Source: Escherichia coli
GTDB taxonomy: Bacteria > Pseudomonadota > Gammaproteobacteria > Enterobacterales > Enterobacteriaceae
NCBI RefSeq assembly: GCF_011045215.1
Contig: NZ_CP049201.1
Length of the DNA stretch: 64,000 nucleotides
Strand: one strand, 5' to 3'
In this document: positions 20,479 through 35,942 of the stretch, in pieces
How positions within the stretch are numbered: position 1 is the stretch's first letter
Layout: every line of letters begins with the position of its first letter
The notes under the pieces: generated by a model
What the model was told of the DNA's origin: nothing
What the model saw: only the letters and a program-made list of their open reading frames with translations
Database searches by the model: none
Made by a program: the position numbers and the translations under genes

Positions 20479-22867
<2,389 letters not shown>

Positions 22868-23158
22868 GGTTCTCTCCCTAAAAATCTGTCTGGCAGGGTA
22901 GCGATTTGTGCGTATTGTCACGATTGAGATTTTTTAAGGTGAGGGGGAATTGATAACTTGTAGTTATGTGAAATCGCTATTTTCTGTAGCGGAGATGCAT
23001 TCTTCTGACTTCTTGTCTGAGAAAATGCATAAGAAAAAATAGGTTAAAACTGAGGGGTGGAAAAGAAAGGTGCAATGTTTAGCTATTGTATTCACCGCAC
23101 CTGGACTTTGGCTTACGCATCGGGTGTCTCAATCAACAAAAAGAGTTTTTAGTTTCTG

Positions 23159-23983
23159 CTATTTCTTCTCTGTAATTTTTACACAGTTTTCCAACTGCTT
23201 GATGCTGATCTGCGGGGTCGGCAACTCTTCAGGCATGGTTCCGCCAAGTTCCTGAATGGTTTGTCTCACCTTGCGACCCACGTCAAAGTGTGTGGTGTTA
23301 GCTTGCTGTTTTGAATTCACGCCATCCCGCTTGAGTTTTTCTTCTGTTTGGGTAGCTCGAAAGAGATTAGCCGCCAGTTCTGTTGAACCCATATAATCCA
23401 GGATCTTCTGACTCTTTTTCAGCCCCTTCCGCTGATGGATGGCTTTCTGATCTAATCCACCATACAGCCCCCGGTAACCATGATTCTGAAATATGGCGAA
23501 ATCGATAGCTGTCGCTACCCCAGCTTGCTGCGCTGCCTCAACTAATTGTTTGTTATGTTCTTTCAATTCATTTCTCAGAAAAAGACGCTTTTCGTCTTCA
23601 CGAAGTTGCCTGAAAGCTTCATCGTCAGCCAGCTCCTGCCGTCGGGTCTGGATAGCAAAATAAGTTTGCCCTGCCGCAATAACCGGTTTCGCAGGGTCGC
23701 CGTTTTGTACTACCAGGTAACAGGCATAGCGGGAGAGATGAACATCTTCAAGTTCTCGTTGAGCCCCTGAACCTAATACAACCATTTTGGTGGTTTCAAC
23801 GAAATGGTCAGATGCAGCTTGATTGCTGGCTTCGCACGCTTGAGTCGCGCGGGCAAGTACCTTTTGAAAATTGCGCCAGTCCCGATAATCCAGTAACGGT
23901 GCCAATTCTCTCGCTGACCAAAATTCTTGCCCTTCAGTGCCATAATGCCGTATTTCTTCAAAAGGTTGATGATGTTCGTTCAT
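23159..23983 (-). CDS. dinD: DNA-damage-inducible protein D
   Basis: 274 aa from MNEHHQPFEEIRHYGTEGQEFW; a LexA box lies about 45 bp upstream. Confidence 0.85.
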   Translation of the reverse strand: MNEHHQPFEEIRHYGTEGQEFWSARELAPLLDYRDWRNFQKVLARATQACEASNQAASDHFVETTKMVVLGSGAQRELEDVHLSRYACYLVVQNGDPAKPVIAAGQTYFAIQTRRQELADDEAFRQLREDEKRLFLRNELKEHNKQLVEAAQQAGVATAIDFAIFQNHGYRGLYGGLDQKAIHQRKGLKKSQKILDYMGSTELAANLFRATQTEEKLKRDGVNSKQQANTTHFDVGRKVRQTIQELGGTMPEELPTPQISIKQLENCVKITEKK

Positions 23984-24028
23984 TGCCCACTCCATGTGAT
24001 ATCGATTGCAAAGAAAGTAAATCTGTAA

Positions 24029-24044
24029 CTGTATTTATATACAG
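24029..24044. promoter_or_regulatory. LexA operator (SOS box) in the dinD promoter
   Basis: CTGTATTTATATACAG fits the CTGT-N8-ACAG consensus, just upstream of the dinD start. Confidence 0.7.
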
Positions 24045-24130
24045 TTGTGAGTATCTCACGTTCTCAGTGTGCTGGGCAAAAAGACATCGCAAAATCTGGA
24101 ACAGGCACGCAAAACAGAATTGAAAGTTGC

Positions 24131-24169
24131 GGAGAAGAAAAATGCCGCTCTGTTTGAGTGGGCGGCATT
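24131..24169 (-). terminator. Rho-independent terminator downstream of yicC
   Basis: Stem aatgccgc/gcggcatt followed on the minus strand by a T-run. Confidence 0.45.
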
Positions 24170-24204
24170 TGTGAAGGCTGAAAAGTAAGAATTGGCGTTA
24201 CGAG

Positions 24205-25068
24205 TTATTCAATGTTCTGAATCTGCTCGCGCATCTGCTCAATCAACACTTTCAGCTCAATCGCGGAGTTTGTCACTTCGGCATTGATAGACTTCGAAGC
24301 AAGAGTGTTCGACTCGCGGTTGAACTCCTGCATCATAAAGTCCAGACGACGACCAACGGCTTCTTTTTTCTTCAGAATGTTGTACGTCTCTTTAACATGC
24401 GCTTCGAGGCGGTCCAGTTCTTCGGCAACGTCAATTCGTTGTGCCAGCAGAACCAACTCCTGCTCCAGACGGTTGTTTTCCAACTGCACCTGAGCATCTT
24501 CCAGCTTCGCGACCAAGCGTTCACGCTGCCATTGCAGGATTTCCGGCATATGGGAGCGGACTTTGACCACTTCGGCGGTGACGCCTTCCAGACGCTGCTC
24601 AATCAACGCTTTCAGCGCCTGACCTTCGGTTTCGCGAGCGATGATAAAGTCATCCAGGGTGCCATCCAACGCCGCGAGAATTTCAGCGGCAATCGCGTCG
24701 AGATCCTGCTCCTGGGCTGCCATCACGCCCGGCCAGCGTAGAATATCAACCGGGTTGATTTCCCCTTCGTCACTCTGCATTTTTACCCAGTTCGCGGCAG
24801 TTACCAGCTGTTTAGCCAGTTTTTCATTGAGGATCAGCTCACCTTGTGCGCTAACATCTGGCTCATAGCGCAGGGTACATTCCACTTTACCGCGCGTCAG
24901 GCGAGAACGAATACGCTCACGAACGACAGGTTCAAGGCTACGGAACTGCTCCGGCAGACGAAAGTAAGTTTCCAGATAACGCTGGTTTACCGAGCGCATT
25001 TCCCAGGTTGCGCTCCCCCATTCACCCTTGATTTCACGCCGGGCGTAGGCGGTCATACTGCGGATCAT
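24205..25068 (-). CDS. yicC: YicC-family (UPF0701) stress-induced protein
   Basis: 287 aa from MIRSMTAYARREIKGEWGSATWEMRSVNQRYLE; synteny. Confidence 0.9.
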   Translation of the reverse strand: MIRSMTAYARREIKGEWGSATWEMRSVNQRYLETYFRLPEQFRSLEPVVRERIRSRLTRGKVECTLRYEPDVSAQGELILNEKLAKQLVTAANWVKMQSDEGEINPVDILRWPGVMAAQEQDLDAIAAEILAALDGTLDDFIIARETEGQALKALIEQRLEGVTAEVVKVRSHMPEILQWQRERLVAKLEDAQVQLENNRLEQELVLLAQRIDVAEELDRLEAHVKETYNILKKKEAVGRRLDFMMQEFNRESNTLASKSINAEVTNSAIELKVLIEQMREQIQNIE

Positions 25069-25194
25069 AGACGTTCCTGTTTATAAAAGGAGAGGTGGAA
25101 GGATTATAGCCATCGATGCCTTGTCAGGATAGGAATAACCGCCGGAAGTCCGTATAATGCGCAGCCACATTTGTTTCAAGCCGGAGATTTCAAT

Positions 25195-25911
25195 ATGCGT
25201 CCAGCAGGCCGTAGCAATAATCAGGTGCGTCCCGTTACCCTGACTCGTAACTATACAAAACATGCAGAAGGCTCGGTGCTGGTCGAATTTGGCGATACCA
25301 AAGTGTTGTGTACCGCCTCTATTGAAGAAGGCGTGCCGCGCTTCCTGAAAGGTCAGGGCCAGGGCTGGATCACCGCAGAGTACGGCATGCTGCCACGTTC
25401 TACCCACACCCGTAACGCTCGTGAAGCGGCGAAAGGTAAGCAGGGTGGACGCACAATGGAAATCCAGCGTCTGATCGCCCGTGCTCTTCGCGCGGCAGTA
25501 GATTTGAAAGCGCTGGGTGAGTTCACCATTACGCTGGACTGCGACGTGCTTCAGGCTGATGGTGGCACGCGTACCGCGTCGATTACGGGTGCCTGCGTGG
25601 CGCTGGCAGATGCGCTACAGAAGCTGGTGGAAAACGGCAAGCTGAAAACCAACCCGATGAAAGGGATGGTAGCCGCAGTTTCTGTCGGAATTGTGAACGG
25701 CGAAGCGGTTTGCGATCTGGAATACGTTGAAGACTCAGCCGCAGAGACCGACATGAACGTAGTGATGACCGAAGACGGGCGCATCATTGAAGTGCAGGGG
25801 ACGGCAGAAGGCGAGCCGTTCACCCATGAAGAGTTACTCACCTTGTTGGCGCTGGCCCGAGGGGGAATCGAATCCATTGTAGCGACGCAGAAGGCGGCGC
25901 TGGCAAACTGA
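25195..25911 (+). CDS. rph: Ribonuclease PH, intact full-length form
   Basis: 238 aa from [41 protein letters not shown]; reads through to the wild-type C-terminus. Confidence 0.9.
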
Positions 25912-34883: not shown

Positions 34884-35942
34884 GTGGATAAGCCATTTCG
34901 AAGAATTTTGCTCATTAAGATGCGTTTTCATGGGGATATGTTATTAACTACTCCCGTCATTAGTTCGCTGAAAAAAAATTACCCTGACGCAAAAATCGAT
35001 GTGCTGCTTTATCAGGACACCATCCCGATCCTGTCTGAAAATCCAGAGATTAACGCGCTCTACGGCATAAAAAATAAAAAAGCAAAAGCCTCAGAAAAAA
35101 TTGCCAACTTTTTTCATCTCATCAAGGTATTACGTGCCAATAAGTATGACCTTATCGTCAATCTTACCGATCAATGGATGGTTGCTATACTGGTTCGCTT
35201 ATTAAATGCCCGTGTGAAAATTTCCCAGGATTATCATCATCGGCAGTCTGCTTTTTGGCGTAAAAGTTTCACCCATTTGGTGCCGTTGCAGGGTGGAAAT
35301 GTGGTGGAAAGTAACTTATCCGTGCTGACACCATTGGGACTTGATTCGTTGGTGAAGCAGACAACCATGAGTTACCCGCCTGCAAGCTGGAAACGTATGC
35401 GTCGCGAACTTGATCACGCTGGTGTTGGACAAAATTATGTGGTTATCCAACCTACGGCGCGGCAAATCTTCAAATGCTGGGACAACGCCAAGTTTTCCGC
35501 TGTGATTGATGCCTTACATGCTCGTGGTTATGAAGTCGTTCTGACGTCCGGCCCAGATAAAGACGATCTGGCCTGCGTCAATGAAATTGCGCAGGGATGC
35601 CAGACGCCACCAGTAACGGCGCTGGCTGGAAAGGTGACCTTCCCGGAACTTGGTGCGTTAATCGATCATGCGCAGCTGTTTATTGGCGTTGATTCCGCAC
35701 CGGCGCATATTGCCGCTGCAGTTAATACGCCGCTGATATCGCTGTTTGGTGCGACAGACCATATTTTCTGGCGTCCCTGGTCAAATAACATGATTCAATT
35801 CTGGGCGGGAGATTACCGGGAAATGCCAACGCGCGATCAGCGTGACCGAAATGAGATGTATCTTTCGGTTATTCCGGCGGCAGATGTCTTTGCTGCTGTC
35901 GATAAATTACTGCCCTCCTCCACGACAGGTACGTCGTTATGA
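34884..35942 (+). CDS. waaQ: LPS heptosyltransferase III
   Basis: GT9 heptosyltransferase; first gene of the long waa operon. The start is uncertain (GTG at 34884 or a downstream codon). Confidence 0.85.
   Translation: MDKPFRRILLIKMRFHGDMLLTTPVISSLKKNYPDAKIDVLLYQDTIPILSENPEINALYGIKNKKAKASEKIANFFHLIKVLRANKYDLIVNLTDQWMVAILVRLLNARVKISQDYHHRQSAFWRKSFTHLVPLQGGNVVESNLSVLTPLGLDSLVKQTTMSYPPASWKRMRRELDHAGVGQNYVVIQPTARQIFKCWDNAKFSAVIDALHARGYEVVLTSGPDKDDLACVNEIAQGCQTPPVTALAGKVTFPELGALIDHAQLFIGVDSAPAHIAAAVNTPLISLFGATDHIFWRPWSNNMIQFWAGDYREMPTRDQRDRNEMYLSVIPAADVFAAVDKLLPSSTTGTSL

Follow-up and report, generated by a model that had tools for sequence, protein, structure and literature searches.

The LexA box upstream of dinD in an Escherichia coli strain is identical to the K-12 SOS site

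Escherichia coli encodes LexA, and multiple LexA boxes have been reported for one of its target genes, recN. How firmly does dinD (pcsA) belong to the LexA-controlled genes? In K-12, it is named among the genes with a known SOS box (PMC6590174), and RT-qPCR on lexA(Def) and lexA(Ind-) mutants has confirmed that its expression depends on LexA (PMC3009722), in keeping with the status of SOS gene given to it in a first-pass annotation of the DNA analyzed here. AZT induces K-12 dinD 9.8-fold, with a 12-fold dependence on LexA cleavage (PMC11228462); ciprofloxacin raises the transcript by up to log2 4.5 and the DinD protein as well (PMC11002266), and 5-azacytidine is a further inducer (PMC4924334). 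dinD-lacZ serves as a standard SOS reporter (PMC10327210), and DinD itself, at least in the account cited in PMC4786428 (Uranga 2011), has been reported to dismantle RecA filaments.

How does the present locus compare with this described case? Within the window (the whole 64-kb stretch of E. coli DNA that was analyzed), a canonical LexA box had been read at 24029-24044, and the 16-mer in question, CTGTATTTATATACAG, is found there exactly, on the plus strand and as a single copy; 0 of 100 dinucleotide-preserving shuffles contain it. It is the core of a 20-bp palindrome at 24027-24046, AACTGTATTTATATACAGTT, which reads AACTGTATATAAATACAGTT on the gene (minus) strand and which we assign as the LexA (SOS) box from its CTGT-N8-ACAG core, its matrix score, and its identity to K-12. 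Of the 20 positions of this palindrome, 17 agree with the consensus TACTG(TA)5CAGTA (PMC6590174) and 18 are self-complementary, and it has the CTGT-N8-ACAG inverted repeat with AT-rich spacer that characterizes the E. coli-type gammaproteobacterial LexA box. The only other copy of CTGT-N8-ACAG in the window, at 35742, carries a GC-rich spacer.

A matrix scan was the check proposed in the first-pass annotation, with a poor score as the outcome that would speak against a LexA site. Our symmetrised position weight matrix was built from 17 published E. coli LexA boxes with dinD left out (PMC3009722, Table 4) and scores the dinD box at 24.94 bits, with the runner-up in the 64-kb window at 11.24 bits. 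The 17 training boxes themselves span 13.5-28.1 bits on the same matrix, and the dinD score is the fourth-highest when set against them, behind istR2 and the identical sbmC and umuD boxes. The exact probability of reaching at least 24.94 bits is 1.4e-9 per position, which amounts to 9e-5 expected sites per window. The heterology index recomputed from these sites is 2.95 (asymmetric) or 3.73 (symmetrised); the published value for the K-12 dinD box is 2.2 (PMC11228462), and an index under about 15 is taken to indicate regulation by LexA (PMC11002266). By matrix score and heterology index alike, the dinD box lies within the range of proven LexA sites.

Comparison with K-12 gives the same picture. 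The published K-12 dinD motif, ACAACTGTATATAAATACAGTTACA (PMC3009722), is reproduced exactly in the window, so that the 20-mer is the regulatory site that had been anticipated for dinD. The match to the MG1655 locus runs without a difference from the candidate -35 hexamer through the box and 24 bp beyond, which answers the promoter comparison also proposed at the outset. The two loci also share the spacing between box and start codon and the neighboring genes—yicC upstream, yicG downstream—and the seven small differences in the 221-bp intergenic region all lie outside the box and the candidate hexamers. The dinD operator is thus already known, a textbook SOS site identical to the laboratory-strain version, and the palindrome at 24027-24046 is almost certainly its counterpart here. 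LexA dependence and induction by DNA damage are documented for the same sequence in K-12 and would carry over to it.

The downstream gene is dinD. Its 274-aa coding sequence (23159-23983, minus strand) scores 501.7 bits over aa 1-274 against the NCBIfam equivalog NF008573, "DNA damage-inducible protein D" (curated cut-off 242 bits), contains a Pfam Bro-N domain at aa 10-105, and is annotated dinD in RefSeq genomes; the gene order ligB-yicG-dinD-yicC-rph-pyrE is that of K-12. In the same neighborhood rph (25195-25911, plus strand) appears full length, ending ...ATQKAALAN, from which we presume that the strain is without the rph-1 frameshift of K-12 MG1655 and W3110. The dinD 3' end contains, at 23192-23207 on the plus strand, the 16-nt sequence CAACTGCTTGATGCTG, which in K-12 has been reported as a stretch of tisAB antisense to the 3' end of dinD; tisAB-dependent degradation of dinD mRNA was not seen by the authors of that work (PMC2577331).

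Where does the dinD reading frame begin? The minus-strand open reading frame (23159-23995) holds two in-frame ATGs, at 23995 and 23983. We place the start at 23983 because a GGAG Shine-Dalgarno element (23990-23993, minus strand, read directly from the sequence) stands 6 nt upstream, because RefSeq starts dinD at the equivalent position in MB51, a strain with 100% identity across window 23900-24260 (361 bp), and because the resulting protein matches the 274-aa family model at full length. The ATG at 23995 has no comparable Shine-Dalgarno element. Exactly 45 bases (24028 to 23984) separate the 16-mer from the ATG at 23983, in agreement with the roughly 45 bp first given. We rejected the box as a means of choosing between the two ATGs, since both lie equally downstream of it; of the earlier proposal that the box anchors the start, the position 23983 stands, while the box itself does not fix the start codon. 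Confirming the operator nonetheless lends support to the dinD annotation, and to the start codon assigned to the gene, in the present strain.

How might the operator act on its promoter? A permissive hexamer scan gave as the best pair of the intergenic region a candidate -35, TTGCCC (24074-24079, minus strand), and a candidate extended -10, TGaGATACT (24050-24058, minus strand), which ends 3 bp upstream of the LexA box; at 8 of 12 matches and with an 18-bp spacer, the pair is a weak match, and a stricter consensus sigma-70 scan of 23800-24400 returned nothing above threshold. K-12 and the divergent allele of MRY15-131 have the same candidate -10. Our literature search yielded no usable mapped transcription start for dinD (Ohmori et al. 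1995 was outside its reach), and we infer the placement of the operator relative to promoter and start site from the candidate hexamers, which would put transcription initiation at about 24040-24046. A LexA dimer would bind both CTGT/ACAG half-sites, and the operator, beginning 3 bp downstream of the candidate -10, would extend over the transcription start and the ~17 bases transcribed first; because the operator would lie over the start site, bound LexA would block RNA polymerase. An operator over the start site is in a usual position for repression by occlusion, here presumably acting on a weak candidate promoter (TTGCCC-18-TGnGATACT). Once DNA is damaged, RecA filaments formed on single-stranded DNA would stimulate LexA to cleave itself, the operator would be vacated, and dinD would be transcribed.

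On the upstream side, RNA folding finds a hairpin with U-tract resembling an intrinsic terminator 3' of yicC (24133-24170, minus strand), the yicC 3' end lying at 24205. The hairpin itself (24170-24140) has a folding energy of -12.4 kcal/mol (z = -3.7), and none of 200 shuffles is as stable; a consensus terminator scan of 23800-24400 missed it because of its 13-nt loop, in which K-12 has a 1-bp deletion relative to the window. The structure looks like the yicC terminator and would keep transcription of yicC from reaching the dinD promoter. The interval between dinD and yicG yielded no terminator-like site.

How widely is the box conserved? A 50-mer centered on it is present at ≥99% identity in 3,434 of 5,426 complete E. 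coli genomes. Within the 80-90% identity band (563 genomes) lies a divergent promoter type, of which MRY15-131 and KE47 were examined as examples; it keeps both CTGT/ACAG half-sites with one change in the spacer, AACTGTATATAAACACAGTT, and scores 22.95 bits. Of the eight bases that directly follow the box, four differ in this type, leaving a small footprint around the operator.

Beyond the species, searching for the exact 20-mer with one genome per species returned 96 stretches in Gamma- and Betaproteobacteria, in which the box stands 0-45 bp upstream of genes of SOS type as judged by their domains: dinB/Y-family polymerases, umuD-like S24 peptidases, lexA, dnaE2-like polymerases, yebG, and integron-type integrases. 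This distribution fits a generic high-affinity LexA operator. dinD adjoins the box in only 1 of the 96 stretches, a contig labeled as a Lentisphaeria metagenome-assembled genome (MAG), where the first 43 DinD residues equal those of the window; the contig is probably mis-binned E. coli, and the scan of the exact 20-mer gave no cross-genus footprint for dinD itself. Two public records deserve mention: E. coli-type dinD and its LexA box occur both in this Lentisphaeria-labeled MAG and in MG065691.1, "UNVERIFIED: Campylobacter phage A11a," the latter also with a K-12-type promoter. Both probably reflect contamination or mis-binning.

DinD homologues elsewhere are not preceded by the box in the two cases we inspected, a Klebsiella strain and a Thiothrix plasmid. 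The homologue of Klebsiella pneumoniae (L008 3001-3804) is 75.5% identical, follows ibpB, and is a pseudogene with an in-frame stop at codon 133; that of the Thiothrix plasmid (L010 2980-3822) adjoins parAB. With both homologues lacking the box, LexA control belongs to the E. coli locus and not to the protein family, and the name "DNA damage-inducible" that these two homologues bear is transferred by homology only.

In some E. coli strains, the operator itself is interrupted. EBJ001 carries the ISL3-family element ISKox3 exactly in the 8-bp spacer (equivalent to window 24033-24040), flanked by the target duplication ATTTATAT, and 227 complete genomes contain the ISKox3 junction 70-mer at full length. 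Another ISL3-family element, ISEc53, with a ClbS/DfsB-family passenger gene, occupies the same position in the variant box of IAI39, with the duplication GTTTATAT. The insertion junctions in our comparison loci are found in L003 (2672-2686 and 4001-4012), L005, and L011 (2528-2540 and 4420-4432). Since the two ISL3 elements differ, insertion seems to have happened independently at least twice. In both cases the operator is split, and more than 1.3 kb comes to lie between dinD and its promoter. An operator split by an ISL3-family element in several hundred sequenced E. coli genomes should uncouple dinD from LexA, and because dinD is a widely used SOS reporter gene, the insertion-split operators may merit separate study.

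Might the palindrome have another origin or another role? Short palindromes are frequent in AT-rich intergenic DNA, and among 30 mononucleotide shuffles of the window one gave a score of 20.3 bits; yet a palindrome arisen by chance and without regulatory role is extremely improbable, given that scores of 24.9 bits or more are expected only 9e-5 times per window, that the site has the sequence of an operator already studied by experiment, and that it is conserved in thousands of genomes. Equally far-fetched, in our estimation, is the idea that the sequence owes its preservation chiefly to being a target or hot spot of ISL3-family elements and not to serving as an operator. ISKox3 and ISEc53 do sit at exactly the 8-bp spacer in other strains, with the former's junction in 227 genomes, but being a target is a liability and offers no explanation for conservation, the window itself is without an insertion, and operator function is documented in K-12.

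The site could also be a LexA operator that serves another or additional transcript, either an antisense RNA running into yicC or yicG reached by read-through past dinD. In its favor, a palindrome has no direction, and the search for a terminator-like site between dinD and yicG came out empty. We rate this possibility slightly above the other two but still improbable: the plus-strand side holds only the yicC 3' end and its terminator, with no open reading frame or promoter-like site; Rfam (E<=1) reported no RNA family in 22000-25600; and the tables of SOS genes name dinD, not yicG or yicC (Table 1 of PMC6590174; Table 1 of PMC11228462). The reading of the palindrome as the LexA operator of dinD is the one we carry forward.

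Is the gene behind the operator uniform? DNA identity between window and K-12 dinD is 96-97% in codons 1-11 and 83-274 and 53.5% in codons 12-82 (window 23738-23950); with the promoter included, identity outside this segment is 96-100%. The divergent segment lies within the Bro-N domain; over aa 12-82 the K-12 DinD, a member of the other allele class, is 45% identical to the window protein, vs. 83% overall. The two allele classes are both common, with the window type in 2,808 and the K-12 type in 1,899 complete genomes, and either class occurs with both variants of the box. In O157:H7 strain TR01, a stretch matching one type lies next to a stretch matching the other, with some overlap, and its dinD may be a recombinant between them.

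Other strains have no dinD at the locus. In APEC17, which lacks the gene, yicG and yicC are adjacent, with about 250 bp of unrelated sequence between them (L006 3746-3998, corresponding to window ~22922-24204) and a slightly different 3' end of yicC. A query spanning dinD to yicC (window 23900-24260) has no match in 571 of the 5,426 complete genomes. By these sequence comparisons, the dinD region is a presence/absence polymorphism in E. coli.

Could such a polymorphic gene act in defense? DinD matches the PADLOC phage-defense candidate PDC-S13 (PDLC04919) over its full length (410.9 bits, E = 5.6e-124), and it also matches the N-terminal 266 positions of a 717-position profile for Type I specificity subunits. 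Homologues are found on Streptococcus satellite phages, other phages, and plasmids, and a dinD-domain gene has been described inside a Type I restriction-modification operon (PMC9881135); our literature search returned no mention of PDC-S13. The PDC-S13 match, the homologues on mobile elements, the absence in some strains, and the two Bro-N allele classes together raise the idea that dinD is an SOS-triggered, single-gene module against phages or other mobile elements, instead of modulating RecA as a housekeeping function, and that the LexA box ties it to DNA damage or to the induction of prophages. We regard this as unlikely on present evidence, though worth stating: the two sharply different classes over aa 12-82 may be what is expected of a target-recognition surface under diversifying or balancing selection, and a gene that looks polymorphic and associated with mobile elements may have a biological role different from the one usually assumed.

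How, then, does dinD sit among described LexA-controlled systems? The Gifsy prophage antirepressor modules of Salmonella present a similar layout, with a LexA box after a terminator-like palindrome and a small accessory gene module behind it (PMC3121763). The Bro-N domain of DinD weakly matches phage Ant antirepressor families; unlike the Gifsy modules, however, dinD lies outside any prophage, between the core genes yicC and yicG. We know of no antirepressor activity of DinD, and the likeness to the Gifsy modules is only a resemblance. Close to the dinD box are also the high-affinity boxes of umuDC, sbmC, tisB/istR-2, and recN, which have the same CTGT-N8-ACAG arrangement with an AT-rich spacer. 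The dinD box differs from the TACTG...CAGTA form in its outer positions, which are A and T (AACTG...CAGTT), and dinD, unlike recN, has a single box. In strength, nevertheless, the five belong to the same top tier: the umuDC, sbmC, tisB/istR-2, and recN boxes score 24.6-28.1 bits vs. 24.9 for dinD, and their published heterology indices are 1.8-3.5 vs. 2.2 (PMC11228462).
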